From assembly GCA_035290625.1 (NCBI GenBank), contig DATDTY010000033.1, positions 20,482 through 84,481 of the forward strand: 64,000 nucleotides of DNA, written 5' to 3'. Below, in pieces: positions 2,473 to 20,907 of the stretch (positions are counted from its first letter, which is position 1; the number at the start of each line of letters is the position of its first letter). A program made the translations under genes and the position numbers. The stretch is from Candidatus Nanoarchaeia archaeon (GTDB lineage: Archaea; Nanobdellota; Nanobdellia; Woesearchaeales; DATDTY01). The notes below the pieces were generated by a model. It was not told where the DNA came from. It ran no database searches and saw only the letters and a program-made list of their open reading frames with translations.

Positions 2473-2572
2473 TTTTTACTAGTGATTCCCAATGCTATAT
2501 AAGGTTGTCCACTTTACCACAGAAAATTATAAAAAGGATGAAGTTTTTATTCCAAAGTAAGAAAGGTGGTCC

Positions 2573-2858
2573 TATGCTAAAGCTGAAGAGAATATCAGAA
2601 ACATATGATATGAAGGTATTTACAGATACCGGAGAATATTTCGGAGATATTGAGGAGACAATGCTTACCCAGACAAAGGTATCCGGATGGCGCGTAAAAG
2701 CCACAAAAGGCTCCTACCTTGCCAAGGCCCTTGGATCTGCGAAAGGGGTTATTGTCCCCCACCAGCTTGTCAGGAGCATTGGGGATATTATGATTATCAG
2801 CAAGGCTGCTGTCCCTTCCTACAATCCTGAGGAAGAGGAAGGCGCTGCTCAGGCATGA
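2573..2858 (+). CDS. PRC-barrel domain protein (ORF-track span 2505..2858; start probably the internal Met MLKLKR)
   Basis: KVFTDTGEYFGDIEE ... GVIVPHQLVRSIGD pattern of archaeal PRC-barrel proteins. Confidence 0.5.
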
Positions 2859-3286
2859 ACCTCAGCAGCACTGCATTCTCTGATGGCGAAGCCATCCCCT
2901 CTCCCTTCACCTGCTCAGGCAGGGATATAGCACCGTCACTCTCCATCTCAGATGTTCCAGGACAAGCCAAGAGCCTCAGCCTGATCATGGATGATCCTGA
3001 CGCTCCTGTTGGAACCTTTGTCCATTGGGTCGTTTGGAATATACCTCCTGATGCGAAGGAACTTGGCCATGGGATAAACAAAGGTGTCCAAGGCATGACT
3101 GACTTCGGAAGGATAGGCTATGGAGGGCCTTGCCCGCCTTCAGGGAAGCATAGGTATTACTTCAAACTCTATGCACTTGACTGCATGCTCCAGCTGAGCG
3201 AACATGCAGGAAAAAGGGAACTTGAGCAGGCAATGAAGGGGCATATCCTGGCCCAGGCTCAGCTGATGGGCACGTATACACGTTAA
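2855..3286 (+). CDS. PEBP (YbhB/YbcL, Raf-kinase-inhibitor-like) family protein
   Basis: DPDAP ... HWVVWNIP ... GYGGPCPP ... HRYYFKLYALD motifs. Confidence 0.75.
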   Translation: MNLSSTAFSDGEAIPSPFTCSGRDIAPSLSISDVPGQAKSLSLIMDDPDAPVGTFVHWVVWNIPPDAKELGHGINKGVQGMTDFGRIGYGGPCPPSGKHRYYFKLYALDCMLQLSEHAGKRELEQAMKGHILAQAQLMGTYTR

Positions 3287-3321
3287 GTATTTAAAAAACG
3301 CAATTCTTCTTTCCTGTTTGC

Positions 3322-3392
3322 ACGGCTGTGATCTAATGGCATGATACCAGCTTCCCAAGCTGGTTATCCGGGTTCGAATCCCGGCAGCCGTA
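3322..3392 (+). tRNA. tRNA-Gly (anticodon CCC), 71 nt, no intron, CCA not encoded
   Basis: Manual fold. Acceptor ACGGCTG/CAGCCGT. Anticodon stem CCAGC/GCTGG with loop TTCCCAA. T arm CCGGG-TTCGAAT-CCCGG. Discriminator A. Confidence 0.8.
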
Positions 3393-3397
3393 TGAAC

Positions 3398-3754
3398 TCA
3401 GTGCTGGAAGAACCGATTATCCTCAAACTCTTCATCCTCAGAAAGGAGCTTTTCTGCAGCAGATTCCTCCTCAGAAACGTTTGCTGAGCCGCAATAGGGG
3501 CATTTGTTGATAGATTTTGAGCCGATGGTCTTTGCAAACATATAGCTGCAGGCATTGCACTTCATCTTGATTCTTGGTTGGCTTTTCTCCTGGCGTGCTT
3601 CCTCTGGCTCAGGACTTCGGATCCCCCTGCATGAGCTGCACACCAGTTCTCTTCCCCGTATATCGGCAGAACTCAACGTAACTTTTTTTCCGCACTTTAC
3701 ACACTTTACCATCGCCTCTTTGGCCATTTTAGCTTTGCACAGTCTTCCATACAT
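3398..3754 (-). CDS. Double zinc-ribbon protein (two CxxC...CxxC pairs)
   Basis: CVKCG ... CSSC and CNAC ... CPYCG motifs. Acidic C-terminal tail. Confidence 0.45.
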   Translation of the reverse strand: MYGRLCKAKMAKEAMVKCVKCGKKVTLSSADIRGRELVCSSCRGIRSPEPEEARQEKSQPRIKMKCNACSYMFAKTIGSKSINKCPYCGSANVSEEESAAEKLLSEDEEFEDNRFFQH

Positions 3755-3840: not shown

Positions 3841-4344
3841 CTAGGGCATCTTCTTCTGCCTGAGCTTCTGGATATCTGCCTGGAGCCTGCTGATGGCACG
3901 TATATGGGGATCTATCGTCTCATTAGCCTTGATGCTGAGCTTGAGCAGCTCGACTTCCAGGATGAGCTGGATTTCCTTCTGATCAAGGCTGTTATGGATT
4001 GCCTGTATCTCAGCGACCTGATCTTCGCTCAATGCAGCAACAGCAAACCCTGTTGTGCGCGGATATCTGCTGAGCAAGTAGCTGTTTGTCAGGAACGCAG
4101 AAAGAAATATCAGGGCAATGATTGCTCCAATGATGACCACTGCCTTTTTGCTGCTGAGTGTGCTTTCCTCGAAGAGCGTGCCCTGTTCTGAGGCGTGCAT
4201 CACCTTGAGGTAGGAGGCGAAAGCGCCATCTACGTCATTCTTTGTATGGCCCTGGCCATAGAGGGCATTCCTGATTGAATGGCTTGTGAAGCCCCTCTTC
4301 TGGCACTGCGCAATATACTCGATTACTTTTGAATCTGCAGCCAT
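3841..4344 (-). CDS. Hypothetical membrane-anchored protein with one TM helix and a C-terminal coiled coil
   Basis: ORF with a central hydrophobic helix VVIIGAIIALIFLSAFL. The overlapping +-strand ORF 3793..4191 is treated as an antisense artefact. Confidence 0.4.
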   Translation of the reverse strand: MAADSKVIEYIAQCQKRGFTSHSIRNALYGQGHTKNDVDGAFASYLKVMHASEQGTLFEESTLSSKKAVVIIGAIIALIFLSAFLTNSYLLSRYPRTTGFAVAALSEDQVAEIQAIHNSLDQKEIQLILEVELLKLSIKANETIDPHIRAISRLQADIQKLRQKKMP

Positions 4345-4449: not shown

Positions 4450-6228
4450 TTATTCCACCTTTTCCCTGACTATAACGCTTCTCGCTTTCCCAGCCAGAGC
4501 CTGCTCGAGAAGGTTCTTCCTTTCCGTGTAGCTGCTAATAACACTCTTCACTGGGTCAGTTTCCCTCTTCTTTGTTTCTTGTGTGACAATATGCATTGCC
4601 TCTCTTCTGTTAGAGCCTGGAATATACAGCTCTTCGGGAGCAATAGGCACAATCAAGACTTCTTTCACATGCCTGCATCCAGCCATATATTCAAGAGCTG
4701 AGTCTTCTATGAGATGCCCCACTGTTCCATCGGCATGTCCATCTGGTCCTGTCCCTTCCCTCGAAAAGAGTTTTCCACTTATCATCTCTTCGAGGCCCAC
4801 TACGGGAAACAGCTCATTTTCCTTTTGCGCTTCTTTCCACTTATCCATAGCAGCGCGATATACTGTTTTGCTGCTCAGTTCAAACCCTCTGTAGGGATCG
4901 TACTTGTAAATTCCATCAGTCCTCTTTATTAAAATGACTTTTTCAATTCCATAAAACTCAGCAAGCGCAATGGTGTGGGTGTCAGAGTCTTGGAGAGGGA
5001 TCTCGTCTCTTACAAGAATATAGTGAGGAGCCATTGCAATGAGGGGGGTCTTTTTGTTGCTGTTCGAGATAAAATAAAATGCCCCTGGACCGATAAGCGA
5101 AGACCTCTCAGGCGTAAATATTCCGTGAATCATTTTAAGATTTGTCATCAATACTTCCGCAATAAGTTCTGGATAGGAGGAGTTTACGTATCTTCTATTG
5201 ATAAATTCAGCCAGCCACGGATTCTCTTGCTTCAGCTTGGCTAAGTGCAGGGCTTTCCTCACAGTCTGTCTTTCCCTCTTTACCTTATCCTCTAATTCTG
5301 TAATTGGTGTGACACGCCCTGTCCATAGGGCCTCGCCCTCCTGATATCTTCTGGATAAATCTTCCTCTACATATCTTTCTACAGATTCTGCATACGTTTC
5401 TGCAGATATCTCCCATAATCTGAGGTCTTCTATCCCGCCTGTTTCTATCCCAGAAAGTATCTTTCTCAGAGCCGTTTTATGTTTGGTAAACATTTCGTCT
5501 AATTCATCTCCTACAAGATTGCCGCTAAGGAAACTGAGTTCCGGTGATTTGTTCCTCCACAACCCGTATTTCTTCTGGTAATCTTTTATCACCTCTCCGA
5601 GTTGCCCTGCTCCTACGGTGCAGATGATCCTATGCTCCTGCATTTTTTGCTTTTTGCTAAGTGGATTTGGAATTTGATTTTGAGCTAATTTGGAAATGAT
5701 GTGGCAGTACATTGCCAGTGAGGGGTCATACTCTCTCTGCCTGTCGTAATCCAATGCGCTTCCTCCGATTTTTATGATTTTCCCACGCTGAATCGGAGAC
5801 GGGACACGGAATAATTTTCCGGCCAGATCCTCAAATGCTTGGGCATTTTCAGAAATACCCTCCATACTGTATTTCACGCCTGTGTTCACTGCCTGAATCC
5901 GTAATTGTTCAGTGATGGCTTCTCCACCTTTACTTACCATAATCTGTGGCATAAACGGATCGGCCCTTCTTATTCTTGCAATATGGGACATATTCCCATT
6001 GAGCTGCTTGTTGTCATACACTACAGCTGCCCAATGAAGTGGTTGCTGTAGATCAGGTTCTCCTACGATTTTCTTTGCCTCTTCAACAGAATCCACCCTC
6101 TTAGTATCAAACGCATTCCATCTTGATCTCTGTTTCTGAGCCAGGATGTTGTTGATGCATTGTGTAAGGTCGTCTCCTTTCTCAACAACAAGAATTGGCA
6201 ATGCTTTTGAGAGATTTAGGCTGGCCAT
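4450..6228 (-). CDS. Large (592 aa) atypical amino-acid-kinase-fold protein. IKIGGSALDYD N-lobe motif and TDGIYKYDP C-lobe motif are separated by long insertions. About 150-aa N-terminal extension.
   Basis: KIGGSAL, TVGAGQ and KRTDGIYKYDPY motifs match the carbamate-kinase/UMP-kinase fold. The size and insertions are unlike characterised family members. Confidence 0.5.
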   Translation of the reverse strand: MASLNLSKALPILVVEKGDDLTQCINNILAQKQRSRWNAFDTKRVDSVEEAKKIVGEPDLQQPLHWAAVVYDNKQLNGNMSHIARIRRADPFMPQIMVSKGGEAITEQLRIQAVNTGVKYSMEGISENAQAFEDLAGKLFRVPSPIQRGKIIKIGGSALDYDRQREYDPSLAMYCHIISKLAQNQIPNPLSKKQKMQEHRIICTVGAGQLGEVIKDYQKKYGLWRNKSPELSFLSGNLVGDELDEMFTKHKTALRKILSGIETGGIEDLRLWEISAETYAESVERYVEEDLSRRYQEGEALWTGRVTPITELEDKVKRERQTVRKALHLAKLKQENPWLAEFINRRYVNSSYPELIAEVLMTNLKMIHGIFTPERSSLIGPGAFYFISNSNKKTPLIAMAPHYILVRDEIPLQDSDTHTIALAEFYGIEKVILIKRTDGIYKYDPYRGFELSSKTVYRAAMDKWKEAQKENELFPVVGLEEMISGKLFSREGTGPDGHADGTVGHLIEDSALEYMAGCRHVKEVLIVPIAPEELYIPGSNRREAMHIVTQETKKRETDPVKSVISSYTERKNLLEQALAGKARSVIVREKVE

Positions 6229-6562
6229 GCAGTCCAGGATATCAGCATTCCTTATAAATCTTTTTACTACTTATCAGTAAGATTAAAGAGAACAAAGAAG
6301 AAAAAAGAGGGCAAGGAGTGCCATTTCCTATAAAGATACTTTATACTTCTTGCTCAGCAGCGCTCCCTGCTCTTTTCTATGGATAACTTTTCTGTGCACT
6401 TCTATCCTATCTTTCTCTCCCCTCTGTCTTGTTTTTTTCATGGCTTATCACCTTCACCTTGGTTTTGATTCTTTTAGTATTATCCGGAACATATATATTC
6501 TTTTTGTATATTGAATATATTAAGAATATGTAGTAATATTTATCATATACTAAAACGATATA

Positions 6563-6570
6563 TTTATATA
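6563..6570 (+). promoter_or_regulatory. TATA-box-like element (tttatata) about 22 nt upstream of the 6588 start, inside a 360-bp AT-rich intergenic region
   Basis: Archaeal promoter consensus position. Short leader. Confidence 0.35.
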
Positions 6571-6587
6571 TTTCTCTTCTTTCCTGT

Positions 6588-7511
6588 ATGATTATGAAGA
6601 GGAAACTCGTGAAACAGGGCTTGAGTGCGCTCACCATCACTATCCCTTCTTCGTGGGTGCGAAAAAATAACCTTAAAGCAGGAGACGAGGTTGATGTGCT
6701 GGAGAGAGATACCTCTCTGACGATTTCGAAAGAAGGAAGGACAGAATTAAATGAAATCACTGTGGATCTTACTGGGCTTCTGCCGCGGCTTGCAGACCGC
6801 TTTATGGCACGCGCATACCAGAAGGGTTATGATCGTATTATCCTGAAATCAGAGGATCCTGATCTCCTTCAGGCAGTTAAGAACAAGGTTCCTGAACTCA
6901 TGGGGTATGAAATCATTAACAGCATGAAGAACCAAGTAGAGGTTCAAATCCTTTCAGCCCAGCTTGATTTGGATTTTGACACACTCTTGCGGCGGGCCCT
7001 CCTCATCCTCAAAGACATGCTCCAGACCTGCCATGATGCCTGGAAAGCGGGGGACAAAAAGTCTCTGGACGGGATTTTCTATCAGGACTATGATGTGAAT
7101 AAATTCATGTATTTCTGCCTTCGCCAGTTAAACACCAGCCAGAAACTTATGACATTTGGTCGCTCCATCCTTTATTATCTTATTGAAACCCTAGAAGACC
7201 TGGGTGATGAGCTCAAAGCACTTGGCAAGGTGTTGGCGCAATTACCCCCTCATAAGGCCGTTCTTGGCATATTGAACAAGCTTATTGAAATGTATCAGTT
7301 AAGCTATGAGTTCTTCTATACCCCCGACAGAAAAAAGGCAAAACAGGCATATATGCTCAGCAAAGAAATATCCGAGCTTATTGATGCCCAGCTTTCAAAC
7401 ACAAATCTTCTTATGGTTAAGGCGTTGATATCTCTGGAATTCTCGAACCGGATTATTTACCATTTAACCACTATGCGCCTGGATACTCTTAAGGGCCTAG
7501 GTGGCCAGTAA
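6588..7511 (+). CDS. Regulator with an N-terminal SpoVT/AbrB swapped-hairpin DNA-binding domain fused to a PhoU-like helical domain
   Basis: KRKLVKQGLSALTITIPSSWVRKNNLKAGDEV is an AbrB/MazE-type motif. The helical C-terminal region resembles archaeal PhoU homologs. Confidence 0.55.
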   Translation: MIMKRKLVKQGLSALTITIPSSWVRKNNLKAGDEVDVLERDTSLTISKEGRTELNEITVDLTGLLPRLADRFMARAYQKGYDRIILKSEDPDLLQAVKNKVPELMGYEIINSMKNQVEVQILSAQLDLDFDTLLRRALLILKDMLQTCHDAWKAGDKKSLDGIFYQDYDVNKFMYFCLRQLNTSQKLMTFGRSILYYLIETLEDLGDELKALGKVLAQLPPHKAVLGILNKLIEMYQLSYEFFYTPDRKKAKQAYMLSKEISELIDAQLSNTNLLMVKALISLEFSNRIIYHLTTMRLDTLKGLGGQ

Positions 7512-9819: not shown

Positions 9820-10983
9820 TTAACAGATACCAGCCCTAGATTTCCTGATTATCTCCACTGCTTTGTCAATCTCTTGTCTTGAGATATCAAGGCTTGGGAA
9901 CAAAACTACTCTTCCATCGAATGCAGAAATGATCAATCTATCCTCCAAGCATCGCTGCTGAATTCCGGGATCCGGCTCATCGAAGCCAATGCACAGCCCC
10001 TTTCCTTCAGGCCTGAACTCTGACAGCCTTTTCATGAGATATGCTCCGCTTTCAGCAGCCTTCGCGACAAGGCCCTTCTGCTGAATATACTCGATGTTTG
10101 CAAGGCAAGCTTCTACAGAAAATGGGTGCCAGCCAAAGGTTGAATAATTGCTAAAATCAAAACGCATGGGCTCAGCGACTTCTGGTCTGGCTATTGTTGC
10201 ACCAATCGCGCCATAGCCTGAGCTCATTCCTTTTGCGATTGTGATGATGTCTGGCTCCAGACCGAAATGCTCGAAGCCGAACCATTTTCCTGTACGGCCG
10301 AATCCTGTTGCAACCTCATCGCAGATGAACAGGGTGTCTGTTTCGCTGCATGCTTCCATGATTCTGTTAAAGAACTCTTTTGGAGGCACTATGACTCCCA
10401 GATTACAGATGATTGGTTCTGAGATGAATGCAGAGATTTCTCTCTTCTTGATGAGTTTTACAGCCTCTTCTGTTGTTTTTTCCCAATCTTTTGCGTCGAT
10501 TTGGAGATAGTCTTCTGAGAACTTTCCAAAATGCAGCTCATGGGCCGGGATTTTGACAAGCGAGAGGCAGGCAATGGATTGGCCATGGTATGCACCTTTA
10601 AAGGCCAAAAACTTCCTCCTTTTATTGTATGCACGCGACATCTTTAATGCAATCTCAACTGCTTCTGTTCCTCCTGTTGCTCTAAAGCAGGCCGTCTGCC
10701 TGCCGATAAGCCTGCTGAGCTTTTTTGCGAGGTCTTCCCATCGCTCATAGATATAGGAAGGCGGAACGTACTCAGGCCCTTTAAATCTCTGAATGGCATT
10801 CCTGATCTGGCTTTTTCTCCAGCCTGCGTTGCCAACACACCACCCCATTGTGAAATCCAGGTATCTCTTTCCGTTTTTGTCAATGAGGTAACTTCCCTTA
10901 GAATCCGCAACCTCTATTGGGTAGGGAGGAGCATCCCTAAACAAGAATTCCCTTGTATCAGTTTTTTTGCGCATCAAGTCCAT
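9820..10983 (-). CDS. Class III PLP-dependent aminotransferase (start at MDLMRKK; the longer ORF would read through the tRNA-derived repeat)
   Basis: [14 protein letters not shown] and [11 protein letters not shown] motifs. Confidence 0.75.
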
Positions 10984-11007
10984 GTAGACAATTTTTAATA
11001 TTAAGAG

Positions 11008-11075
11008 TGCGGGGAGCAGGCAGCGCAACTCACTTCGTTCGTTGCTGGCCTGCTCTCCTCGTTCATTTCATTCAC
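11008..11075. repeat. tRNA minihelix-like element, 68 nt. Begins with a copy of the 13 3'-terminal nt of the adjacent tRNA (RC gcggggagcagg). Forms a hairpin with gcctgctctcc.
   Basis: Direct repeat of the tRNA 3' end 55 nt from the true tRNA end. About 90% identical to the units at 30357..30498, with compensatory differences. Confidence 0.55.
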
Positions 11076-11239
11076 TGCGGGGAGCAGGATTCGAACCTGC
11101 GTAGGCACTAAGCCAACAGATGGCCCGCCTGAGTAGTTCATCAGACCTGGGTGAGGACCTCAACACTCATGACTTGAGTATGGACGTTTTAGCGCCTGTC
11201 GCCAAACTCTGTCCCGTTTGGCCACTCCGGCATCCCCGC
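11076..11239 (-). tRNA. Intron-containing class II tRNA (Leu-like). Long variable arm UGGCUUAGUGCCUAC and discriminator A. 164 nt, implying an intron of about 80 nt. Anticodon unresolved.
   Basis: Acceptor GCGGGGA/UCCCCGC. D arm CCG-GAGUGGCCAAA-CGG. Anticodon stem ACAGA/UCUGU separated by 87 nt. T arm GCAGG-UUCGAAU-CCUGC. Near-identical scaffold to the tRNA-Leu at 30499..30582. Canonical 37/38 splicing would give the loop GUUUGGA. Confidence 0.6.
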
Positions 11240-11285
11240 ATTGTGCGGAGTAGAACGCCCCGTGTTTTAAATATGTTGCTTTTTG

Positions 11286-11525
11286 GGCTCAGTAGAAAGT
11301 CAGTCGGCAGTGGCTTGCAAGCGAGCAAGGCGAGCTTGCTCGCTAGCCACCGGCTCGCTTGTGCTTCCTTCACTGTTTGCTGACACCCCCGAAGGTGCTA
11401 AAAAGAGCCATGCTCTTTTGGCACATCAAAACGCCAGAGGGCGTTTTGATTGGGCCAACCCTCTGTCAGCGGTGCTATAAAAGTAAATAAGCTCGCAGAA
11501 AGGATGCCGGACTTTCTACTGAGCC
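11286..11525. mobile_element. MITE-like element family 1, copy 2 (240 bp; carries an extra internal palindromic insertion). Same 16-bp terminal inverted repeats. Flanked by tttttg.
   Basis: Terminal repeats identical to copy 1. The internal insert gcaagcgagcaaggcgagcttgctcgc is itself palindromic. Confidence 0.7.
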
Positions 11526-11560
11526 GTTTTTTGGAACTCTTCTTATCCAGAAATGCGGTC

Positions 11561-11941
11561 TTATGTCAAAATCCCAAGCTTGCTCTCAATCGCATTCAAC
11601 TCTTCTTCCAGGCGGTCTAACTCAGAAACCGGCTTTGGCCTTGGCATTTGAGGCCGCCTGGCTCTTGGCTGGTCATCGATCTTCTTCTTTAGCTCTGCCC
11701 TCTTTGTATCCACATTCTTTCTTATGTGATGAACTGGCAGCGCATCTTCGAGGCTCTTGCCAAGCTTGCTAATCTCTACCATCAAGTTTTTGAGGATGAA
11801 CACCTCTCTTATCTTCATCTCCTGCGTATACTGGAAAGCTTCGTAGCGCTGCAAAGCTGTGATAATCTCCTTAGAGCCCTGGAGCAGCGTCCTTCGTATC
11901 GCAATGGGATCCTCAATACTCACAAACATCGTATCTTCCAT
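11561..11941 (-). CDS. Hypothetical coiled-coil protein (126 aa)
   Basis: ORF. Third gene of a tandem set of small coiled-coil ORFs. Confidence 0.4.
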   Translation of the reverse strand: MEDTMFVSIEDPIAIRRTLLQGSKEIITALQRYEAFQYTQEMKIREVFILKNLMVEISKLGKSLEDALPVHHIRKNVDTKRAELKKKIDDQPRARRPQMPRPKPVSELDRLEEELNAIESKLGILT

Positions 11942-11943
11942 CG

Positions 11944-12171
11944 TTACATCTGCTCAGGCTCAAAGAGGCCGCTGTCTATGCCTTCAACCCTCCTTTCAAC
12001 ATCATTAACTGCATTGCTCCAGGCTGCCAGCTCCTGATCCTCCTTATCTTTAAGCTCGTTGATCTTTGCCAGAGTTTTCTTGGCCTGGCTGATCTTTGCC
12101 CTCAGGACCTCCATGATCTCAAGGACTTCTTTATATCTCTCAATCTTGATAAACACCGGCATACCCGTCAT
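11944..12171 (-). CDS. Hypothetical small coiled-coil protein (start at the internal Met MTGMPVF, giving a 4-nt overlap with the upstream gene)
   Basis: ORF. Heptad-like KTLAKINELKDKEDQEL. Confidence 0.35.
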   Translation of the reverse strand: MTGMPVFIKIERYKEVLEIMEVLRAKISQAKKTLAKINELKDKEDQELAAWSNAVNDVERRVEGIDSGLFEPEQM

Positions 12172-12815
12172 TGTTCCATCACCTTGTCGATTTTGTGCAG
12201 CCTCTTGTTGATATCCTCGAGCATGGAACGCCATTTCTGCGTTTCCTTATCCCTGACGAGCTTGATCTCATTCAGCCTTTTGGAGAGAGCCTCAACCTCT
12301 TCCACCTTCTCCTCAATACTCTGAATATTTCCTAACAAAGTCCTGTATTCATCGCTCCTGACAAATAATGGCCTTTGAGGCATTTTTCTCTCAAACTCCC
12401 TCTTCTTTGCCTCAATCTCTTTTTGTTCAATCTCAGGTTTCACGGGAGACATTTCCGGAAAATCTGGCTTTAATGGGTGCTTCACTATTGGCCTTTGCAA
12501 CTGGTCGAATCTTGGAGGCGCCATCGGCCGGTTCATTACCTGGATTTGTGGAAGGCTTGGCGGCTTTTCTGGATGAGGGGAAGGTCCCTGAATCGGAGCA
12601 GGTACAGGCTCTCTTGGCTGCTCCCTGTCTCTGATGCCCCCCATTGGCCTGAACTCTGTCCTGAATTCAGGAACGGAAATCGGCGGCATCCTCTGTTCAA
12701 ATGAGGGCATCCTTGGCTCTAAGAACGGAGGCGGTGGAGGTATGTCTCCTGCCTTTCTCTTCCTAAATACGTCTAATAAACCCATTGCACCAACCCCTGA
12801 TTTCCAAAGAATCAA
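12168..12815 (-). CDS. Hypothetical protein with a proline-rich N-terminal half and a C-terminal coiled coil (215 aa)
   Basis: ORF. PPPPPFLEPRMP ... PAPIQGPSPHPEKPP low-complexity region followed by a coiled-coil segment. Confidence 0.4.
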   Translation of the reverse strand: MILWKSGVGAMGLLDVFRKRKAGDIPPPPPFLEPRMPSFEQRMPPISVPEFRTEFRPMGGIRDREQPREPVPAPIQGPSPHPEKPPSLPQIQVMNRPMAPPRFDQLQRPIVKHPLKPDFPEMSPVKPEIEQKEIEAKKREFERKMPQRPLFVRSDEYRTLLGNIQSIEEKVEEVEALSKRLNEIKLVRDKETQKWRSMLEDINKRLHKIDKVMEQ

Positions 12816-12892: not shown

Positions 12893-14371
12893 ATGACTGA
12901 GCTCCAGCACGGATGCGGCGTGTTTGGGATTTACGGGCATCCTGATGCTGCGGAATTAACCCGTTGGGGGCTTCATGCAGTCCAGCACCGGGGGCAAGAA
13001 AGCGCCGGAATCGTTTCTGCTTATGCTTCTGATGCCGGGCGCCGCCAGCCTAACCAAAAGCTCGGTATGGGTCTTGCATTTCAGGCTATCCAGGAAGCAG
13101 ACTTAGCCAACCTTTTAGGAGATTATGCAGTTGGCCATGTCCGCTATTCTACGGATGGAGGCTCTTGCTTAGCCAATGCCCAACCGATATTACAGCATAT
13201 TCGGGATGGCTGGGCTGCTTTGTGCCATAATGGAACTTTGTATAACGCGCATCTGGCCAAAGAACAACTTCCCCAGGCCCAATTTGAATATATCGGGGAT
13301 TCAGACTCAGAGGTTATCCTCCATAAGATCTCCCTTTCATCTCAACGTTCCTTGGAGGGCCGTATCCGGGATGGGTTTGCCGGATTGAAGGGATCAGCTT
13401 CTTTGGCCGGCATGCTGGATGGAAAACTGTGGGCTTTCCGGGACCCTTCAGGGAACAGGCCCCTGGTCCTTGGCAAATTTCCGGATAAAGGCTACCCCAC
13501 TGTCGTAGCATCTGAGACCGTTGCTTTTGATATTATCCAAGCTGAATATTCGAGAGAGGTTAATCCCGGCGAACTGGTTGTCATCGATGCAGAAGGGGTT
13601 CATAGCCATCAGCTTTTTCCTCCCTTTGCCCCTTTTTTCCCATGCATCTTTGAGCTTGTTTATTTCTCCCGCCCGGATTCTTTTGTTTTCCTAACCTCCC
13701 CAACCAAATACCGAAATGAGTGCGGCCATATTCTTGCAAGGAAAGACCCAGCAGATGCGGATGTTGTTGTTTCTGTTCCAGATTCCGGAACAGACGGGGC
13801 CATCGGCTATGCTGAAGAGTCCGGAATCCCTTATGAGCGTGGCATTATACGAAGCCATTATGTGGGGAGGGGATTTATTGAGCCCAGCCAATGCATGCGT
13901 GAATTTGCTGCCCGTTTAAAATATAATCCTAACCCTTCTATTATAAACAACCGCCGCGTCATTGTTGTTGATGACTCCCTTGTTCGCGGCACTACTATAA
14001 AGAAGATTGCGTCCATGCTATGGCGCGTCGGAGCTTCTGAGATTCATCTGCGAATCGCATCTCCTGTGTGGATTGACTCCTGTACTTACGGGATTGATGC
14101 CCCTGATCCGGAGAACCTCCTTGGTTATAAATATCGGAATCTTCCTTATCAGGAAATGAAAGAAAAGATTGCTGAACATCTGAAAATAACCTCTTTTGCT
14201 TGTTTGGAGCCTCTTGATTTGTTCCTTCCTGAGTCCCTTCCATCCCATATGCGATCCAACGGGGATTCCTTGGACACTCTTTGCGCCTGCACAAAATGCT
14301 TTACCGGTTATGCCGCTATCCATGAAGCATACGATAATCAATCCATTCTTCCGATACCACAAACCTTATAA
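12893..14371 (+). CDS. purF: Amidophosphoribosyltransferase (glutamine PRPP amidotransferase) with a short N-terminal propeptide before the catalytic Cys
   Basis: MTELQHGCGVFGIYG Ntn-type amidotransferase start. PRTase-domain motifs. C-terminal cysteines consistent with an Fe-S site. Confidence 0.85.
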   Translation: MTELQHGCGVFGIYGHPDAAELTRWGLHAVQHRGQESAGIVSAYASDAGRRQPNQKLGMGLAFQAIQEADLANLLGDYAVGHVRYSTDGGSCLANAQPILQHIRDGWAALCHNGTLYNAHLAKEQLPQAQFEYIGDSDSEVILHKISLSSQRSLEGRIRDGFAGLKGSASLAGMLDGKLWAFRDPSGNRPLVLGKFPDKGYPTVVASETVAFDIIQAEYSREVNPGELVVIDAEGVHSHQLFPPFAPFFPCIFELVYFSRPDSFVFLTSPTKYRNECGHILARKDPADADVVVSVPDSGTDGAIGYAEESGIPYERGIIRSHYVGRGFIEPSQCMREFAARLKYNPNPSIINNRRVIVVDDSLVRGTTIKKIASMLWRVGASEIHLRIASPVWIDSCTYGIDAPDPENLLGYKYRNLPYQEMKEKIAEHLKITSFACLEPLDLFLPESLPSHMRSNGDSLDTLCACTKCFTGYAAIHEAYDNQSILPIPQTL

Positions 14372-14398
14372 AACTCTGGGCGCTCCTTCTCTTTTTTA

Positions 14399-15487
14399 AT
14401 GAACGCGTCTTTGGTTCTTGAGGATGGGAGTGTCTACACCGGAGAGTCTTTTGGATTTGAGAAAAACGTTTCTGGCGAAGTCGTCTTTACCACAGGCATG
14501 GTGGGATATCCTGAGTCCATGACTGATCCTTCCTATGAAGGCCAGATTCTTGTATTCACCTATCCCCTGATCGGGAATTATGGCGTTCCTAACGGAGACC
14601 TTCAGGACAATATGCTTCGGCATTTTGAATCTGACATGATTCACACAAAAGCGATTGTTGTGGGAGATTATCCTCACAAGCATCACCATTGGGAGGCGTT
14701 CCATTCTTTAGGGGATTGGTTAAAGAAAGAGAAGATTCCAGGGATAAGCGGGATTGACACACGAGCGTTGACTAAGAAACTCAGGGAGCATGGAACTCTA
14801 CTTGGAAAGATTGTGTTTAATGATGATCTAGATCATCCTTTGGCTTTAGAGGATCCAAATAAAAAGAACCTTGTATCTGAGGTATCATGCAAAGACGTCA
14901 AGAGGTATGGATCAGGAGATATACACATAATCCTGCTTGATTGCGGCTGCAAAAACAACATCATCAGGAGTTTTGTCAGCAGAGGGGTTGAGGTTGCCCG
15001 CGTTCCTTATGACCATGATTTTTCTAATGAGAGATTTGACGGCTTGTTTATTTCGAATGGGCCAGGAGATCCCAGGATGTGCGTAACAACCATTGAACGC
15101 ATCAGGACTGCAATGGAAAGAAACATCCCTACATTCGGAATATGCCTCGGCAACCAGCTTCTTGCTCTGGCTGCAGGAGCTTCTACGTACAAACTCAAGT
15201 ATGGGCATCGCAGCCAGAACCAGCCTTGCCTGGAGGTTGGGACGAAGAGATGCTATATCACTTCACAGAACCACGGGTATGCTGTTGACGCAAAAACTCT
15301 CCCTCCGGAATGGGAAGAGTGGTTTGTCAATGCCAATGACGGCACGAATGAAGGCATCAGGCATAGAAGCAAGCCGTTTTTCTCTGTGCAATTTCATCCG
15401 GAAGCGATGCCTGGGCCAGTGGACACTGCCTGGCTTTTCGACAAGTTTATTGAGGGGGTTAAGAAGGCAAAGGCCGGAAGAATATGA
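14399..15487 (+). CDS. carA: Carbamoyl-phosphate synthase small (glutaminase) subunit
   Basis: LVLEDGSVYTGESFG N-terminus. GICLGNQ catalytic Cys. HPE triad. Confidence 0.9.
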   Translation: MNASLVLEDGSVYTGESFGFEKNVSGEVVFTTGMVGYPESMTDPSYEGQILVFTYPLIGNYGVPNGDLQDNMLRHFESDMIHTKAIVVGDYPHKHHHWEAFHSLGDWLKKEKIPGISGIDTRALTKKLREHGTLLGKIVFNDDLDHPLALEDPNKKNLVSEVSCKDVKRYGSGDIHIILLDCGCKNNIIRSFVSRGVEVARVPYDHDFSNERFDGLFISNGPGDPRMCVTTIERIRTAMERNIPTFGICLGNQLLALAAGASTYKLKYGHRSQNQPCLEVGTKRCYITSQNHGYAVDAKTLPPEWEEWFVNANDGTNEGIRHRSKPFFSVQFHPEAMPGPVDTAWLFDKFIEGVKKAKAGRI

Positions 15488-18400
15488 AGCCAAAAAAAGT
15501 CCTTCTGCTTGGAAGCGGCAGCCTGAAGATCGGAGAGGCTGGAGAATTTGATTACTCGGGATCACAGTGCATCAAGGCATTGAAGGAGGATGGGATTTTC
15601 GTTGTTTTAATCAACCCTAACATTGCGACCTATCAAACCTCTGAAGGTCTTGCTGATATTGTGTATTTCCTTCCTGTAACACCTTATTTTGTGGAGAAGA
15701 TCATTGAAAAGGAAAAGCCGGATTCTATCCTCCTGTCCTTCGGAGGCCAGACTGCGCTCAGCTGCGGGCTTAGCCTGGCAGCATCGGGTGTGCTGGAGAA
15801 GCACGGGCTTTGCGTCCTTGGAACTCCTGTTGAGGCGATTGAGCAGACCGAGGATCGTGAGAAGTTTGCAAAGCTGCTCGGCAGCATTGATGTGAAGACC
15901 CCAATGTCTTTTCCAGCCACGACAGTTGAAGACAGCCTGGCGGCAGCCGAAAAGATAGGATATCCTGTGATGATGCGGTCTGGTTTTTCTCTCGGAGGCC
16001 TTGGCTCAGGGAAAGCCAAGAATCCGGAGGAGCTTGCTGAGATGGCGCAGAAGGCGCTTGCCCAGGTCTCCCAAATCCTCATCGAAGAGTCTGTGCATGG
16101 GTGGAAGGAGATTGAATATGAGGTTGTCAGAGATGCATTTGACAATTGCATCACTGTCTGCAATATGGAGAATATGGATCCCATGGGAATCCACACCGGA
16201 GAGAGCATTGTTGTTGCGCCTTCGCAAACCCTGACAAATACCGAGTATCATTTCCTGAGGGAAATTTCCATCAAAGTAATCCGGGAGCTGAAGATTGTGG
16301 GAGAGTGCAATATCCAGTTTGCCCTTTCACCTGAATCACTGGACTACCGTGTGATTGAGGTCAATGCACGGCTGTCGCGCTCAAGCGCGCTTGCGTCAAA
16401 AGCGACAGGATACCCTCTGGCTTTTGTGGCTGCGAAGCTCGGCCTTGGGTATAGCCTTCCAGAAATCCCTAATTCGATCACACAGGTCACAAAGGCCTGT
16501 TTTGAACCCTCTCTCGATTATATTGTGGTGAAAATCCCCCGCTGGGACTTCCATAAGTTCCGGGAAGTCAGAAGGCAGATTGGCAGCGAAATGAAGTCTG
16601 TTGGAGAGGTGATGGCTATAGCCAGATCCTTTGAGGAGGCGCTGCAGAAAGCAGTCCGGATGCTGCATATCGGGATGAAGGGACTGAGCCAAAACGGCCT
16701 GGTGTTCTCTGACCTGGAGAGCGAGATTACCAATCCGACAGACATGAGGCTTTATGCAGTTGCAGAGGCGTTCAGGCAGGGATTTTCTGTTTCCAAGGTC
16801 CATTCGTTGAGCAGGATCGACCCCTGGTTCCTTCATAAGATACAGGGCATCGTTGAGTATGAGAAGAGGATCGTAGCAGAAGCGCTCACTGCTCCACTGC
16901 TCAGACGGGCAAAACAACTTGGATTTTCTGACAGCCAGATTGGGAATCTTAAGGGGATGCAGGAGCTTGAAGTCAGGAAGCTGAGGAAAGGGCTTGGGGT
17001 GATTCCCTTTGTCAAGCAGATTGACACCTTAGGGGCAGAATACCCAGCCAGAACCAACTATCTCTACCTTACCTACAATGGATCTGAGCATGACATCACT
17101 TTTGCATCCCCCGATGCTGCACCCTCTCACGCAGTTGTGGTTCTTGGATCAGGCACCTATTCCATCGGAAGTTCTGTGGAGTTCGACTGGTGCTGCGTGA
17201 ATGCAGTTTCCACAGCAAAAAAGCTCGGGTATGAGACAATCATGATCAATTATAATCCCGAGACAGTCTCCACTGACTATGACACCTGCGACAAGCTCTA
17301 TTTTGATGAGCTCAGCTTTGAGCGCGTCCTCGATATCTATGAGCTTGAGCAGCCTCACGGCCTTATTGTGTCAATGGGCGGGCAGGTGCCTAACAGCCTT
17401 GCATTGAAATGCATGAAGGCGCATGTATCTGTCCTCGGGACATCTCCTGAGATGATTGATATGGCTGAGGACAGGCATAAGTTTTCCAAGCTGCTGGATT
17501 CGCTCGGCATTGACCAGCCTGCGTGGAAAGAGCTTACTTCAGTGGAGGAAGCGCAGGCATTTGCCAAGAATGTTGGGTATCCTGTCCTGGTGCGGCCCAG
17601 CTATGTCCTGTCAGGAGCAGCCATGAGCCTTTCCTTTGATGACTCTTCTCTTGCAGAATATCTCCAGAGGGCGTCCTCTGTAACTCCTGAGCATCCTGTT
17701 GTCATCTCAAAGTTCATTGCCAATGCCAAGGAAATCGAATTTGATGCTGTCAGCCAGCATGGCGAAATCGTGGTGTACGCGATTACTGAGCATGTTGAGA
17801 ATGCGGGCGTGCATTCAGGCGACGCTACTATGGTTCTTCCGACGCAGAAAACGTACTCCGAAAGCCTGAGGCGGATCAAGCAGGCATCCCGATCAATAGC
17901 AAAAGCACTTGACATATCCGGACCGTTCAATATCCAGTTTCTGGCAAAGGGAAACCATCTGAAGGTCATCGAGTGCAACCTCCGGGCAAGCAGGAGCTTT
18001 CCTTTTGTATCTAAAGTCTTCAAAAAGAACTTCGCTGATATAGCCACTCGGGTGATTCTCGGTCAGCACGTGGCAGAGCATATTGCTGAACTTCCGTCGT
18101 ATGTTGGCGTAAAGGCTCCCCAATTCTCATTTTTCAGGCTCAAGGGAGCAGATCCCATCACTGGCGTGGAGATGGCGTCCACTGGAGAGGTTGCGTGCTT
18201 TGGGGAGGATGTTGAGGAGGCTTTCCTGAAGGCGATGATCTCAACAGGATTCAGGCTGCCCCGGAAATCGATCTTCGTTACTGTTGGAGGAGATGAGATG
18301 CGCTATGAGCTTCTGGATTCTGTGCTCACCTTCCATTACTTGGGGTTCGGCCTGTATGGCACTGAGCACACCTCACTTTTCTTTCAAAAGCATGGCATCC

Positions 18401-18669
18401 CGATGCAGAAGCTGTACAAAATTCACGAGCCTGAGGAGCCAAATATCCTAAGTGCAGTCAAGCAGGGGAAGATCGATCTGGTGATTTCGATACCAGACCC
18501 CCGAAAGCAGAGAGACAGCCAGGATAAGATATTCTCCCGGAGATTTGCTGTTGACTTCTCTGTTCCTTTGCTCAGCAACCTGCAGCTGGTGAAGCTTTTC
18601 TCCTCAGCGATTGCATCGAAGGGTATGGAGGATCTTGCCATCAAGCATTGGGGGGAGTATAGGATTTAA
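15484..18669 (+). CDS. carB: Carbamoyl-phosphate synthase large subunit (1061 aa)
   Basis: Duplicated ATP-grasp halves and an MGS-like C-terminal domain. Overlapping start with carA. Confidence 0.9.
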   Translation: MKPKKVLLLGSGSLKIGEAGEFDYSGSQCIKALKEDGIFVVLINPNIATYQTSEGLADIVYFLPVTPYFVEKIIEKEKPDSILLSFGGQTALSCGLSLAASGVLEKHGLCVLGTPVEAIEQTEDREKFAKLLGSIDVKTPMSFPATTVEDSLAAAEKIGYPVMMRSGFSLGGLGSGKAKNPEELAEMAQKALAQVSQILIEESVHGWKEIEYEVVRDAFDNCITVCNMENMDPMGIHTGESIVVAPSQTLTNTEYHFLREISIKVIRELKIVGECNIQFALSPESLDYRVIEVNARLSRSSALASKATGYPLAFVAAKLGLGYSLPEIPNSITQVTKACFEPSLDYIVVKIPRWDFHKFREVRRQIGSEMKSVGEVMAIARSFEEALQKAVRMLHIGMKGLSQNGLVFSDLESEITNPTDMRLYAVAEAFRQGFSVSKVHSLSRIDPWFLHKIQGIVEYEKRIVAEALTAPLLRRAKQLGFSDSQIGNLKGMQELEVRKLRKGLGVIPFVKQIDTLGAEYPARTNYLYLTYNGSEHDITFASPDAAPSHAVVVLGSGTYSIGSSVEFDWCCVNAVSTAKKLGYETIMINYNPETVSTDYDTCDKLYFDELSFERVLDIYELEQPHGLIVSMGGQVPNSLALKCMKAHVSVLGTSPEMIDMAEDRHKFSKLLDSLGIDQPAWKELTSVEEAQAFAKNVGYPVLVRPSYVLSGAAMSLSFDDSSLAEYLQRASSVTPEHPVVISKFIANAKEIEFDAVSQHGEIVVYAITEHVENAGVHSGDATMVLPTQKTYSESLRRIKQASRSIAKALDISGPFNIQFLAKGNHLKVIECNLRASRSFPFVSKVFKKNFADIATRVILGQHVAEHIAELPSYVGVKAPQFSFFRLKGADPITGVEMASTGEVACFGEDVEEAFLKAMISTGFRLPRKSIFVTVGGDEMRYELLDSVLTFHYLGFGLYGTEHTSLFFQKHGIPMQKLYKIHEPEEPNILSAVKQGKIDLVISIPDPRKQRDSQDKIFSRRFAVDFSVPLLSNLQLVKLFSSAIASKGMEDLAIKHWGEYRI

Positions 18670-18735: not shown

Positions 18736-20907
18736 ATGAAAGTCCTTTTGTGGCTTTTTTTGGGGCAGCTTTGCCTTGTGATACTTCCAACTGCGTCTTC
18801 TTTGCGTTTTAATGAGATCATGTATGATCCTGCGGGCTCAGACTCAGGAAACGAGTGGATTGAGCTTTACAATGATGAGAATTCTTCCATTAACCTCTCT
18901 GATTGGACCTTTTTTGAGGGAGGAGTGCATCACCAGATCAACGCCTTCCAAGGCTCTTTTGTCCTTGAGCCGGGGGAGTTTGCCATCCTCGCTGATGATG
19001 CGGCTTCCTTTAACCAGAGCCATGGGTTTTTAGGAAGCATTTTGGATACAAGCTGGAGCTCTCTCAGCAATTCAGGCGAGAACCTCTCTCTGGAGGATCC
19101 ATCTCAGGCAGTTATTGCTGGCACTTTCTATGACTCCGGCTTTGGAGCAGCAGGCAATGGCAAGAGCCTGGAATATTATGATGGCTGGGTTGAGTCAGTT
19201 GTTTTTAATGGGACTCCGGGAGCAGCAAACTCTGTGCTTGCTTTTATCAACTTTACCTCTTATTTCAATGCAGTTACCATTACTGAAATCATGCCGGATC
19301 CTGATGGGGATGATAACGCCGCCAAGCCAGGAGGTGAATGGGTCGAGCTGTACAACCCAACCCCCTTCCTTCTTGAACTGGAGGGGTTTGTGCTTTATGA
19401 TTCAGATCCTTCCCATCTCCTCTATGTCACGGATATGAATACAGATGGGAACTCTTCCCTTGCGCCGTATTCGTACTTGGTCGTTTATCGGGATCTTGAT
19501 TCAGACTTCACACTCAACAATCTTGGATTTGAGCAGGTCCAGTTCGCGTTTCCCAATCTTACTGTTATTGACTCAGCCTCCTATAGCAGGACTGAGGGGA
19601 ACTTCTCCTGGAGCAAACTCGATTCCTGGGGGATCTCTGCGCCGACTCCCGGGAAGTCAAATTCGAATGTCTCTCTTGGCGACTGCGATTATTCTGTTGA
19701 TGTCAGCCTTGCAGCTCCGGCGTTCCTGAATGGCTCAGATGTCGAATTTTCCATTATTGTATCCAGGAGCTATGGTGATCCCTCAAATCTTACCTTGGAG
19801 CGATGGATTGAGGATTTATTCGGCCAGAGGATGCTTTCGTATGATGCCCTTAACTTCAGCATTGTCAATCGCAAGACCTCTACTCTCTCCCCTAATCTTG
19901 CTTCGGATGACTATAGAGTCTTTGCCAATATCACGTCAATCAGCTGCAATGATGCGTTGCCTGAAAACAACTTTGATTCTGAGCTGCTTGTAGTCAGAGA
20001 GGAGCCGCGTGTTAGCGCCAGTTCGCTCCGTATAGCTTCTGTGCTCGATCTTGGCTCTGACCAGAGGGCAAGATTCGGCCAGGTGATTAGGGCCAGGATC
20101 CAGTCTAATCGGGGAAATTCGAGCCAATCAACTGTGAAGGCCTGGGTTGGCAGAGGGGGCTTTCGGATAAGCAAGATCTCTACATTCTCCCTTCCAGAGT
20201 ACACAAGCCAGGATTTAACATTGCCAATCCAGATTGATGCGAATTGCGATGATGACACCAATGATGGCTCTTATTCTGTCTATGCAGAAGGATTTGGGCT
20301 GGAGCATTCTTTTCCTCTTGAGGTTCGGGGCATTACCGATGATCTCTGCCAGGAGGTTACTGTCCAAACAAAGCAGCAGCTTCCTGAACTGGAGATATCT
20401 TTTGATTCGTTTCCAGAAACCCTTACAGAGCCCGGAACATTTCCCATACCCCTTACAGTAAGGAATAATGATGATGAAGACCACGCTTTGGTCATTTGGA
20501 GCTATTTCTACAGAGGATCGAAGAGCTATTCTGGAGAGCGCCAGGCAAACCAGAAAGAGGTTCTTATCGATGCAGGCGACGAGAAGTCTATCGAGCTTGC
20601 AACTCCTTTTGAAGTCCAAGATCCCGGAGAGTACAGGCTTCGGGCAGTCTACCTCAAGGATGACTTCTCTACAGAAAACTCGCTGACGCGCATCATTACA
20701 TTCAAGCCGGAGATTAAGTCCAGCGCTACTACTGTGCCTGCTGCTGCTGTCCTTGCAGATATTCCTCCTCAACAGGCAAAGCCTTCTGTTGCTGCACGGC
20801 AGGAGATCGTCTATCTTTCTTCAACTGAGAAAGCCCGTGATGCTGCTGATCTGTTGCTGATTGGGGTTCTTACGCTGCTTGCCAGCGTACTGCTGTGGAG
20901 GCGGTGA
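18736..20907 (+). CDS. Secreted surface protein with two lamin-tail (LTD) domains, many N-glycosylation sequons and a C-terminal TM anchor
   Basis: Signal peptide. RFNEIMYDPAGSDSGNEWIELYN and ITEIMPDPDGDD ... EWVELYN LTD motifs. Numerous NxS/T sequons. C-terminal LLLIGVLTLLASVLLWRR. Confidence 0.6.
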   Translation: MKVLLWLFLGQLCLVILPTASSLRFNEIMYDPAGSDSGNEWIELYNDENSSINLSDWTFFEGGVHHQINAFQGSFVLEPGEFAILADDAASFNQSHGFLGSILDTSWSSLSNSGENLSLEDPSQAVIAGTFYDSGFGAAGNGKSLEYYDGWVESVVFNGTPGAANSVLAFINFTSYFNAVTITEIMPDPDGDDNAAKPGGEWVELYNPTPFLLELEGFVLYDSDPSHLLYVTDMNTDGNSSLAPYSYLVVYRDLDSDFTLNNLGFEQVQFAFPNLTVIDSASYSRTEGNFSWSKLDSWGISAPTPGKSNSNVSLGDCDYSVDVSLAAPAFLNGSDVEFSIIVSRSYGDPSNLTLERWIEDLFGQRMLSYDALNFSIVNRKTSTLSPNLASDDYRVFANITSISCNDALPENNFDSELLVVREEPRVSASSLRIASVLDLGSDQRARFGQVIRARIQSNRGNSSQSTVKAWVGRGGFRISKISTFSLPEYTSQDLTLPIQIDANCDDDTNDGSYSVYAEGFGLEHSFPLEVRGITDDLCQEVTVQTKQQLPELEISFDSFPETLTEPGTFPIPLTVRNNDDEDHALVIWSYFYRGSKSYSGERQANQKEVLIDAGDEKSIELATPFEVQDPGEYRLRAVYLKDDFSTENSLTRIITFKPEIKSSATTVPAAAVLADIPPQQAKPSVAARQEIVYLSSTEKARDAADLLLIGVLTLLASVLLWRR

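Follow-up and report, generated by a model that had tools for sequence, protein, structure and literature searches.

The window analysed here is a 64-kb stretch of contig DATDTY010000033.1 from a Candidatus Nanoarchaeia archaeon, and all coordinates count from its first letter. At positions 4450–6228 it carries a gene for a 592-amino-acid (aa) protein in which a CheY-like pseudo-receiver precedes a domain of the amino acid kinase (AAK) fold. Together with a divergently oriented gene for an AbrB-PhoU regulator, this gene forms a conserved two-gene module. We put the probability at about one half that the protein is an active phosphotransferase or ATPase, controlled by its pseudo-receiver and coupled to AbrB-PhoU, and so a two-domain enzyme of the signalling type. 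It belongs to an orphan, DPANN-restricted family whose receiver-like plus AAK architecture is unreported and whose regulator partner is conserved; neither the fold nor the principle is new.

The first-pass annotation, made from the DNA letters and a list of open reading frames (ORFs), had placed a 592-aa protein here, and the reading frame is confirmed: 592 codons run uninterrupted on the minus strand. The product and HLD42886.1, annotated as a “hypothetical protein” in a Candidatus Nanoarchaeia archaeon metagenome-assembled genome, are identical in sequence, and the N-terminus aligns with those of homologues starting at residue 1. The neighboring genes for PCNA, RNase J, Nop5, and fibrillarin confirm that the genome is archaeal. 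All of the motifs that had been quoted as diagnostic were located, IIKIGGSALDYD at aa 151–162, CTVGAGQ at aa 203–209, and KRTDGIYKYDPYRG at aa 435–448. From 5.8 billion proteins, 29 other clusters were recovered with 36–53% identity to the window protein, giving a kinase family of 30 clusters at 90% identity. The alignment set used below comprises 30 homologues. Homologues are 397–592 aa long, typically 450–480 aa.

Kinase domain and family placement

The assignment to the AAK fold is upheld by profile and structure. Pfam AA_kinase (PF00696) matched the window protein with 29.1 bits (E 1e-6) vs. a gathering score of 24.9, with the best stretch being aa 151–224 on profile positions 4–57, and it matched 29 of the 30 homologues (best E 1.5e-13). 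Built from the alignment of 30 sequences, the AlphaFold2 (AF2) model shows the alpha3-beta8-alpha4 sandwich of the AAK fold, with a mean predicted local distance difference test (pLDDT) value of 82.4 and a predicted template-modelling (pTM) score of 0.79. Its closest structures are those of MosB, the beta subunit of the molybdenum storage protein (MoSto) of Azotobacter vinelandii (2ogx_B and 6yt3_B; 235–239 residues, 21–23% identity), with structural-similarity figures of 19.0–19.6. The corresponding figures are 16.2–16.9 for archaeal UMP kinases (UMPK), 15.8 for MfnE, and 11.6–14.8 for aspartokinase, G5K, NAGK, carbamate kinase, isopentenyl phosphate kinase (IPK), and FomA. In Foldseek, archaeal UMPK scored a TMt of 0.71–0.74. 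A direct sequence search of the protein against the PDB gave no match, and matches came from profiles only: the AAK-only profile found the UMPK of P. furiosus (E 3e-5) and also MosB (E 5e-5). Archaeal UMPK (P. furiosus 2bri/2ji5, S. solfataricus 2j4j, A. fulgidus 2ij9) is the best sequence-profile match, and its ATP-site residues are shared with the family.

The only NCBIfam models that were matched are IPPK_Arch, pyrH_arch, and MfnE, weakly and far below their cut-offs. The window protein had no match at E<=1 to pyrH_arch (TIGR02076; cut-off 158 bits) and none to IPPK_Arch (NF040647; cut-off 120 bits), and with MfnE (NF040622) it reached 19 bits (E 9e-4) vs. a cut-off of 300. Weak matches among the homologues numbered 11 of 30 for pyrH_arch (best E 7.8e-5) and 13 of 30 for IPPK_Arch (best E 4.7e-5). 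Because the structure and the profile matches point to these relatives and the NCBIfam scores stay below threshold, we place the AAK domain in the UMPK/IPK/MfnE/MoSto branch and in none of those families; no characterised AAK family was matched at threshold. The earlier proposal of a divergent isopentenyl or other phosphate kinase survives loosely, as membership of this branch. It does not survive as a family assignment, given the sub-threshold IPPK_Arch matches and what is, by alignment or pattern, an Asp or Glu where the related enzymes have an acceptor Arg or His. The view that the gene is not pyrH stands, since a canonical archaeal pyrH lies elsewhere in the window (55171–55884, minus strand; 187.9 bits with TIGR02076) and the protein is below the threshold of that model. 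Compared with PyrH, the family has an extra loop, a C-terminal beta-meander, and the receiver-like domain, and the window protein also has an insertion.

These comparisons bear on whether the protein could be a divergent housekeeping isozyme, either a second UMP or other nucleoside monophosphate kinase or the archaeon’s isopentenyl phosphate kinase with extra domains. Joint Genome Institute (JGI) pipeline labels of “uridylate kinase” or “isopentenyl phosphate kinase” on some members would fit, as would the weak NCBIfam matches and the nucleotide-metabolism genes found in several neighborhoods. Yet the window has its canonical pyrH, the scores for the named families are far below cut-offs, and the Arg that holds the UMP phosphate is replaced by Asp or Glu. 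The family is also rare and patchy. When 1.84 billion cluster representatives were searched exhaustively with a hidden Markov model (HMM), 154 of them matched at E<=1e-3 and 67 at E<=1e-30. A pattern search of 185,579 species genomes gave 5 loci, and in one locus (L019) the gene is split. A housekeeping role is, in our view, very unlikely.

Active site

The conservation of the catalytic Lys and Gly-rich loops, which had been put forward as a check, is borne out: K153-I-G-G-S, G206-A-G208, and K435-R-T-D-G-I-Y441-K-Y-D444-P do not vary among family members. The first part of the N-lobe holds beta1 with K153-I-G-G-S157 and D160, the Gly-rich loop G206-A-G208-Q, D/E212, and the invariant K215. 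The second part of the domain holds N363, a loop of the kind seen in MoSto (A400-P-H-Y...D408.IPLQ-D414-S-D416-T-H418), the nucleotide motif K435-R-T-D438-G-I-Y441..D444-P445, the loop S489-R-E-G-T...D500, the helix G504-H-L-I-E508-D-S-A-L, and a C-terminal beta-meander followed by a long helix. Across the 30 homologues, the invariant residues include K153, G155/G156, S157, D160, G206, G208, and K215 in the N-terminal half, and N363, D414-S-D416-T417, K435, T437-D438-G439, Y441, D444-P445, R490, G492, D500, H505, E508, and S510 beyond it. Most of them persist in divergent paralogues. The putative acceptor pocket is rich in Asp, Glu, and His, and around it about 25 further family-specific polar residues are invariant or nearly so.

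In the UMPK of T. thermophilus (ttUMPK), the phosphates, adenine, and ribose of ADP or UDP are contacted by Lys9, Ser11, Gly51, Lys157/Asn158, Tyr164, and Asp167 (PMC12404492). HMM alignments place K153/S157, the Gly-loop, K435, Y441, and D444 at or beside these positions. Since the invariant residues align with nucleotide contacts in UMPK, their conservation argues for retained ATP binding and phosphoryl transfer.

The same residues bear on a reading in which the AAK domain does not transfer phosphate but senses ATP, ADP, or another nucleotide and modulates AbrB-PhoU through the pseudo-receiver. The first-pass annotation had offered a non-catalytic regulatory homologue as a candidate, and the invariant ATP site disfavors it: K153 and the Gly loops serve catalysis and not merely binding, and a nearly unvarying set of polar residues around the putative acceptor pocket is what one would expect where an enzyme does its chemistry. 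What speaks for a sensor is the apparent loss of the acceptor-site Arg or His of related enzymes, the fusion of the AAK domain to a signalling-type domain, the tight linkage to a regulator gene, and variation at D438 in paralogues. We consider such a sensor unlikely, though plausible enough to be kept in mind.

The N-terminal pseudo-receiver

The N-terminal domain had been described as novel and of unknown type. This has to be revised, as all family members share these roughly 140 aa in the alignment, and the domain has a receiver-like (beta-alpha)5 fold. The AF2 model, the Foldseek and other structure matches, and the profile matches agree on a CheY-like fold. The structures matched are receivers of the CheY, KdpE, and ArlR kind, with structural-similarity figures of 10–11.8 and a Foldseek TMt of 0.65–0.70. 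The family profile aligns with CheY residues 3–126 at 15.8 bits (E about 0.01 in the PDB search), and hhalign gave a probability of 92.9% (E 3.7e-7). Pfam Response_reg (PF00072) did not match the window protein.

The family domain thus aligns with CheY over its full length but departs from it at the phosphorylation site. Counting those members in which a column aligns, the position of CheY D12 is Asp or Glu in 44 of 48, that of D13 is Pro in 27 of 46, that of D57 is Asp in 18, Glu in 13, and another residue in 26, and that of T87 is Gly in 36 of 67, while no column corresponds to K109. In the window protein, the first four of these positions hold E, K, D72, and G, and the fifth has no counterpart. 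This pattern fits the definition of a pseudo-receiver (PMC12632262). Because D13, T87, and K109 are absent, the D57 position is variable, and Response_reg is unmatched, we read the predicted domain as a pseudo-receiver that has lost its phosphorylation machinery.

More distant relatives also carry REC-like N-terminal domains. An hhalign comparison of 47 such sequences with CheY gave a probability of 97% (E 1e-10), the D57-equivalent Asp is present in 34 of the 47, and one has a weak Pfam Response_reg match. Since these domains extend to distant relatives, the alignments indicate that the receiver–AAK fusion is old and ancestral in the clade, with the receiver having degenerated in the window’s subfamily. 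Our literature search found no paper describing a receiver–AAK fusion, and a census of archaeal two-component systems does not list AAK as an output domain (PMC5847659). A broader version of the argument would see the first recognised class of receiver-linked AAK enzymes, ancestrally response-regulator-like and with a receiver that degenerated in Woesearchaeota. With AbrB-PhoU it would make up a DPANN signalling or homeostasis module not described before, and its AAK domain would activate an inorganic or small organic acceptor in the way proposed for the “molybdate kinase” step of MoSto-beta. We find this extended scheme unlikely as a whole.

In two lineages (loci L004 and L005), the kinase gene is directly preceded, in the same orientation, by a gene for a stand-alone 127-aa receiver that keeps the D57 and K109 equivalents. 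One could propose from this that the AAK domain is a phosphodonor, which makes an acyl phosphate like carbamate or acetylglutamate kinases, or directly phosphorylates an Asp, and so feeds stand-alone receivers where histidine kinases are few. AAK enzymes classically phosphorylate carboxylates, the D57 equivalent is kept in most of the distant relatives, and DPANN genomes have few two-component systems (PMC5847659). However, a stand-alone receiver gene was found in only 2 of about 29 loci, with none in the window, the D57 position of the fused domain is variable, and the nearest relatives (UMPK, IPK, MfnE, and MoSto) act on phosphate or oxyanion acceptors and not on carboxylates. A phosphodonor role appears extremely unlikely.

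The AbrB-PhoU partner

Loci were collected from exact-protein look-ups and from genome and metagenome scans, and 26 independent loci had enough context to be informative. AbrB-PhoU adjoins the kinase gene in 19 of these 26, usually divergently. The check on distribution and gene neighborhood that had been suggested thus describes a rare family with one recurrent neighbor. All-versus-all ORF clustering of 30 non-redundant loci found no other conserved neighbor, the remaining clusters being antisense shadow ORFs.

The partner combines an AbrB(SpoVT)-type DNA-binding domain with a PhoU-like six-helix bundle, and between the two parts there is a middle alpha/beta domain at aa 56–121. Pfam gave 34.9 bits for MazE_antitoxin/AbrB and a marginal 23.9 bits for PhoU (PF01895; cut-off 23.5). 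In an AF2 model built with database homologues (pLDDT 86), the PhoU fold is confirmed, as the top 14 Foldseek matches in the PDB are all PhoU proteins (TMt 0.54–0.69). Homologues are named “phosphate uptake regulator PhoU” or “AbrB/MazE/SpoVT family” by NCBI, which starts the window’s gene at the second ATG (6594). Across Woesearchaeota, the partner is 56–69% identical, vs. 36–53% for the kinase, with a mean column identity of 60–71%. Archaeal PhoU-family proteins form a large paralogous family of putative transcription factors that are not necessarily phosphate-specific (PMC6316755). Given the MazE_antitoxin label, a known defense system was also considered; PADLOC run on the kinase, AbrB-PhoU, and two downstream ORFs returned nothing relevant, and this idea was rejected.

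The divergent genes share a 359-bp intergenic region whose promoter function is predicted from its sequence. TATA-like boxes lie about 22–28 nt upstream of both starts, TTATAAAT at 6252–6259 for the kinase and TTTATAT at 6563–6569 for AbrB-PhoU, a spacing that suggests leaderless divergent transcripts. A search of 6229–6587 for operator motifs found only AT-rich imperfect palindromes, including one at 6493–6563.

Proposed mechanism and competing explanations

If the protein is an active enzyme coupled to AbrB-PhoU, the AAK domain would bind Mg-ATP and either move the gamma-phosphate to a small acceptor or hydrolyse ATP via an unstable intermediate. The acceptor would sit in the family-specific acidic and His-containing pocket formed by D160, D/E212, K215, N363, H402, D408, the D414-S-D416-T-H418 segment, R490, D500, H505, and E508. 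The pseudo-receiver would act as a regulatory, oligomerisation, or partner-binding module and not as a phospho-acceptor. AbrB-PhoU, in turn, may control kinase expression from the shared promoter region or respond to the kinase’s product. The acceptor is not UMP, and the way it is bound is probably unlike that of the anionic acceptors of UMPK or MoSto-beta.

Several observations weigh against this reading. The analogy with the closest enzymes breaks down at the acceptor site because the Arg there is replaced by Asp/Glu212. In UMPK, an Arg after the Gly-loop binds the acceptor phosphate (R62 in E. coli and R55 in T. thermophilus; PMC12404492), and this Arg is not kept, with GGGKLAR of P. furiosus aligning with GAGQxG-D/E212. 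The Arg pair of MosB GAGTRAR, presumed to contact the oxyanion or ATP, aligns with Q-x-G-D/E212. No substrate could be inferred for the AAK domain. D438 of the TDG motif is Asn, Glu, or Ser in divergent paralogues, and conservation of the ATP site is also compatible with a protein that senses nucleotides and does not catalyse. The pseudo-receiver call rests on profile alignment and predicted structure. AbrB-PhoU is more widespread than the kinase (186 vs. 30 clusters at 90% identity), and of three loci found through AbrB-PhoU homologues, the kinase is adjacent in L017 (two in tandem) and L019 (split) but not in L018, so adjacency could partly mark a conserved chromosomal landmark.

The Gly-loop of IPK has the motif GGGSFGH, which carries the catalytic His. 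By pattern, the position of this His corresponds to D/E/N212 in the family, although the PDB matches to IPK cover only profile positions 145–178. As the Arg positions differ and the pocket is acidic and His-rich, the acceptor cannot be read off from the relatives.

MosB, as the top structural match, invites a competing explanation in which the protein is an oxyanion-activating ATPase of the MoSto-beta kind. Molybdate, tungstate, or phosphate would be phosphorylated, the unstable anhydride would drive storage, handling, or sensing, and the PhoU regulator would be the matching sensor. MoSto loads molybdenum in an ATP-dependent manner and is related to UMPK (PMC6448029). The AAK fold and the GAG Gly-loop of MosB are also found in this family, as are a P-x-Y...IP..x-T/S-D loop, a [KD]-x-[TE]-DG-[IL]-Y..[DN]-P motif, and an L-[IL]-E...L helix. 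The extended loop (A-P-H-Y...IPLQ-D-S-D in the family and P-P-Y...IPPY-R-T-D in MosB) is lacking in UMPK. A “molybdate kinase” mechanism is said to have been proposed for MoSto beta by Brunle et al. (2019, PNAS). The pairs of family paralogues in some genomes (L009, L015, and L017) recall the MosA/MosB pair, the fused double-AAK proteins P0116 and P0117 could be seen in the same light, and the partner has a PhoU fold.

Against such a role, the basic residues that follow the Gly-loop in MosB are not kept, being replaced by Q/x/D-E, and the pocket is acidic and not anion-binding. MoSto builds an (alpha-beta)3 cage from two kinds of subunit, each about 270 aa long and lacking a receiver domain, while the family protein is larger (450–590 aa) and usually encoded by a single gene; searching the window with the family HMM found no second paralogue. 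Unlike MosB, the family comes from DPANN archaea without a nitrogenase context, and the part of the window that is annotated showed no genes for molybdenum/tungsten or phosphate transport. Nor need a PhoU fold imply specificity for phosphate. We therefore regard a MoSto-beta-like oxyanion activity as unlikely, and favor the pseudo-receiver-controlled enzyme.

The insertion

The first-pass annotation had described about 250 residues of inserted sequence between the two kinase motifs. This figure was too high: the true insertion is about 120 aa (aa 223–348), because the spacing from the Gly-loop to KRTDG is 229 residues here vs. a median of 110 in 29 homologues, and the rest is mostly ordinary AAK core. 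In the window’s own pyrH, the same spacing is about 97 residues. The block, missing from 28 of the 30 homologues, accounts by itself for the excess length and lies in the N-lobe loop that joins helices alphaB and alphaC; in P0006, a shorter insertion occupies this site. Charged residues make up 35% of it, and it is predicted as low-confidence helices (pLDDT 41–73). BLAST of the insertion against all other family members found no similarity. An intein, a mobile element, or another foreign origin was rejected, as the block keeps the reading frame, matches the gene in GC content (0.434 vs. 0.441), lacks similarity in the data set, and is predicted to be helical. We take it as a lineage-specific decoration of a surface loop.

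Large lineage-specific insertions sit at differing sites in different members. P0014 (L004, 8001–9779) and both L017 proteins have one of about 100 aa within the receiver-like domain, and P0019, P0022, and L017_548 have insertions in the alphaA-beta2 loop. This variety suggests tolerant surface loops.

Family spread and locus features

The family is mostly found in Woesearchaeota and Nanoarchaeia, with the named sources being Woesearchaeota, Nanoarchaeia, or Nanoarchaeota. A full-length member, P0016 (8001–9446 in L001), was found on a metagenomic contig of 478 kb, at a distance of 1.3 kb from a sigma-70 gene (10722–12416; 564 aa, regions 1.1–4), and AbrB-PhoU is not adjacent to it there. Because the sigma-70 gene nearby makes the host look bacterial, inter-domain transfer is suggested for P0016. 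In some genomes, two family paralogues stand beside AbrB-PhoU, in tandem or flanking it (Table 1), and the second paralogue in L009 and L015 is a divergent REC-AAK protein. P0086 has TPR repeats in place of the receiver-like domain. The split kinase gene of L019 consists of overlapping ORFs at 2136–2777 and 2767–3525 (both minus strand; 213 and 252 aa), neither with a Pfam match in precomputed annotation, and reflects a frameshift, a pseudogene, or an assembly error.

The two small genes 3' of the kinase, on the same strand, encode a 167-aa protein without a family match and a 118-aa zinc-ribbon protein with a weak HypA-like match. Neither adjoins the kinase in other loci. Genes for PEBP (PF01161) and PRC-barrel proteins recur within a few kb (window 2505–3286, plus strand; L017 6710–7168; L005 3411–3671), which is probably residual synteny and not a functional link. 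Further along the window, a purF-like amidophosphoribosyltransferase gene stands in one run with carA and carB (12893–18669, plus strand), which by sequence gives this DPANN-type genome a capacity for making nucleotide precursors de novo. They are followed at 18736–20907 (plus strand) by a gene whose 723-aa product contains a Lamin Tail Domain (PF00932, 88 bits), here in an archaeal genome.

Table 1. Positions of the kinase gene, its parts, and associated features in the window and in other loci.
Feature	Sequence	Positions	Strand	Basis
Whole gene, 592-aa pseudo-receiver plus AAK-fold protein	Window	4450–6228	-	ORF list, translation, identical database protein
Predicted pseudo-receiver, CheY-like (beta-alpha)5 (aa 8–142)	Window	5803–6207	-	
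AAK N-lobe, first part (aa 148–222)	Window	5563–5787	-	Pfam stretch, invariant columns, UMPK/MosB alignments
Lineage-specific helical insertion, ~126 aa (aa 223–348)	Window	5185–5562	-	Alignment, motif spacing, AF2 model
Rest of AAK domain (aa 349–592)	Window	4453–5184	-	
Divergent intergenic region, 359 bp	Window	6229–6587	.	
AbrB(SpoVT)-type DNA-binding domain plus PhoU-like six-helix-bundle regulator, 307 aa	Window	6588–7511	+	
Small genes 3' of kinase, 118 aa and 167 aa	Window	3398–3754 and 3841–4344	-	
Paralogue pair	L017	207–1841 and 1953–3599		
Paralogue pair	L009	1936–3609 and 4587–5903		
Paralogue pair	L015	5001–6449 and 6483–8114		
Stand-alone receiver	L004	7551–7934	+	
Stand-alone receiver	L005	7569–7952	+	Pfam Response_reg 41.5 bits, above threshold

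Implications

No long-standing question is settled by these results, and their value lies in a well-delimited, experimentally tractable orphan family. If the protein is an active enzyme, it would extend a well-studied fold by a new receiver-like plus AAK architecture and probably by a substrate specificity that is new as well. Of the known relatives of the molybdenum storage protein that do not serve storage, it would also be the closest, and so would bear on how a UMP-kinase-like enzyme became an ATP-driven oxyanion pump. DPANN archaea have very few classical two-component systems. For these organisms, the kinase would provide a handle on the function of AbrB-PhoU regulators that are conserved among them and uncharacterised.

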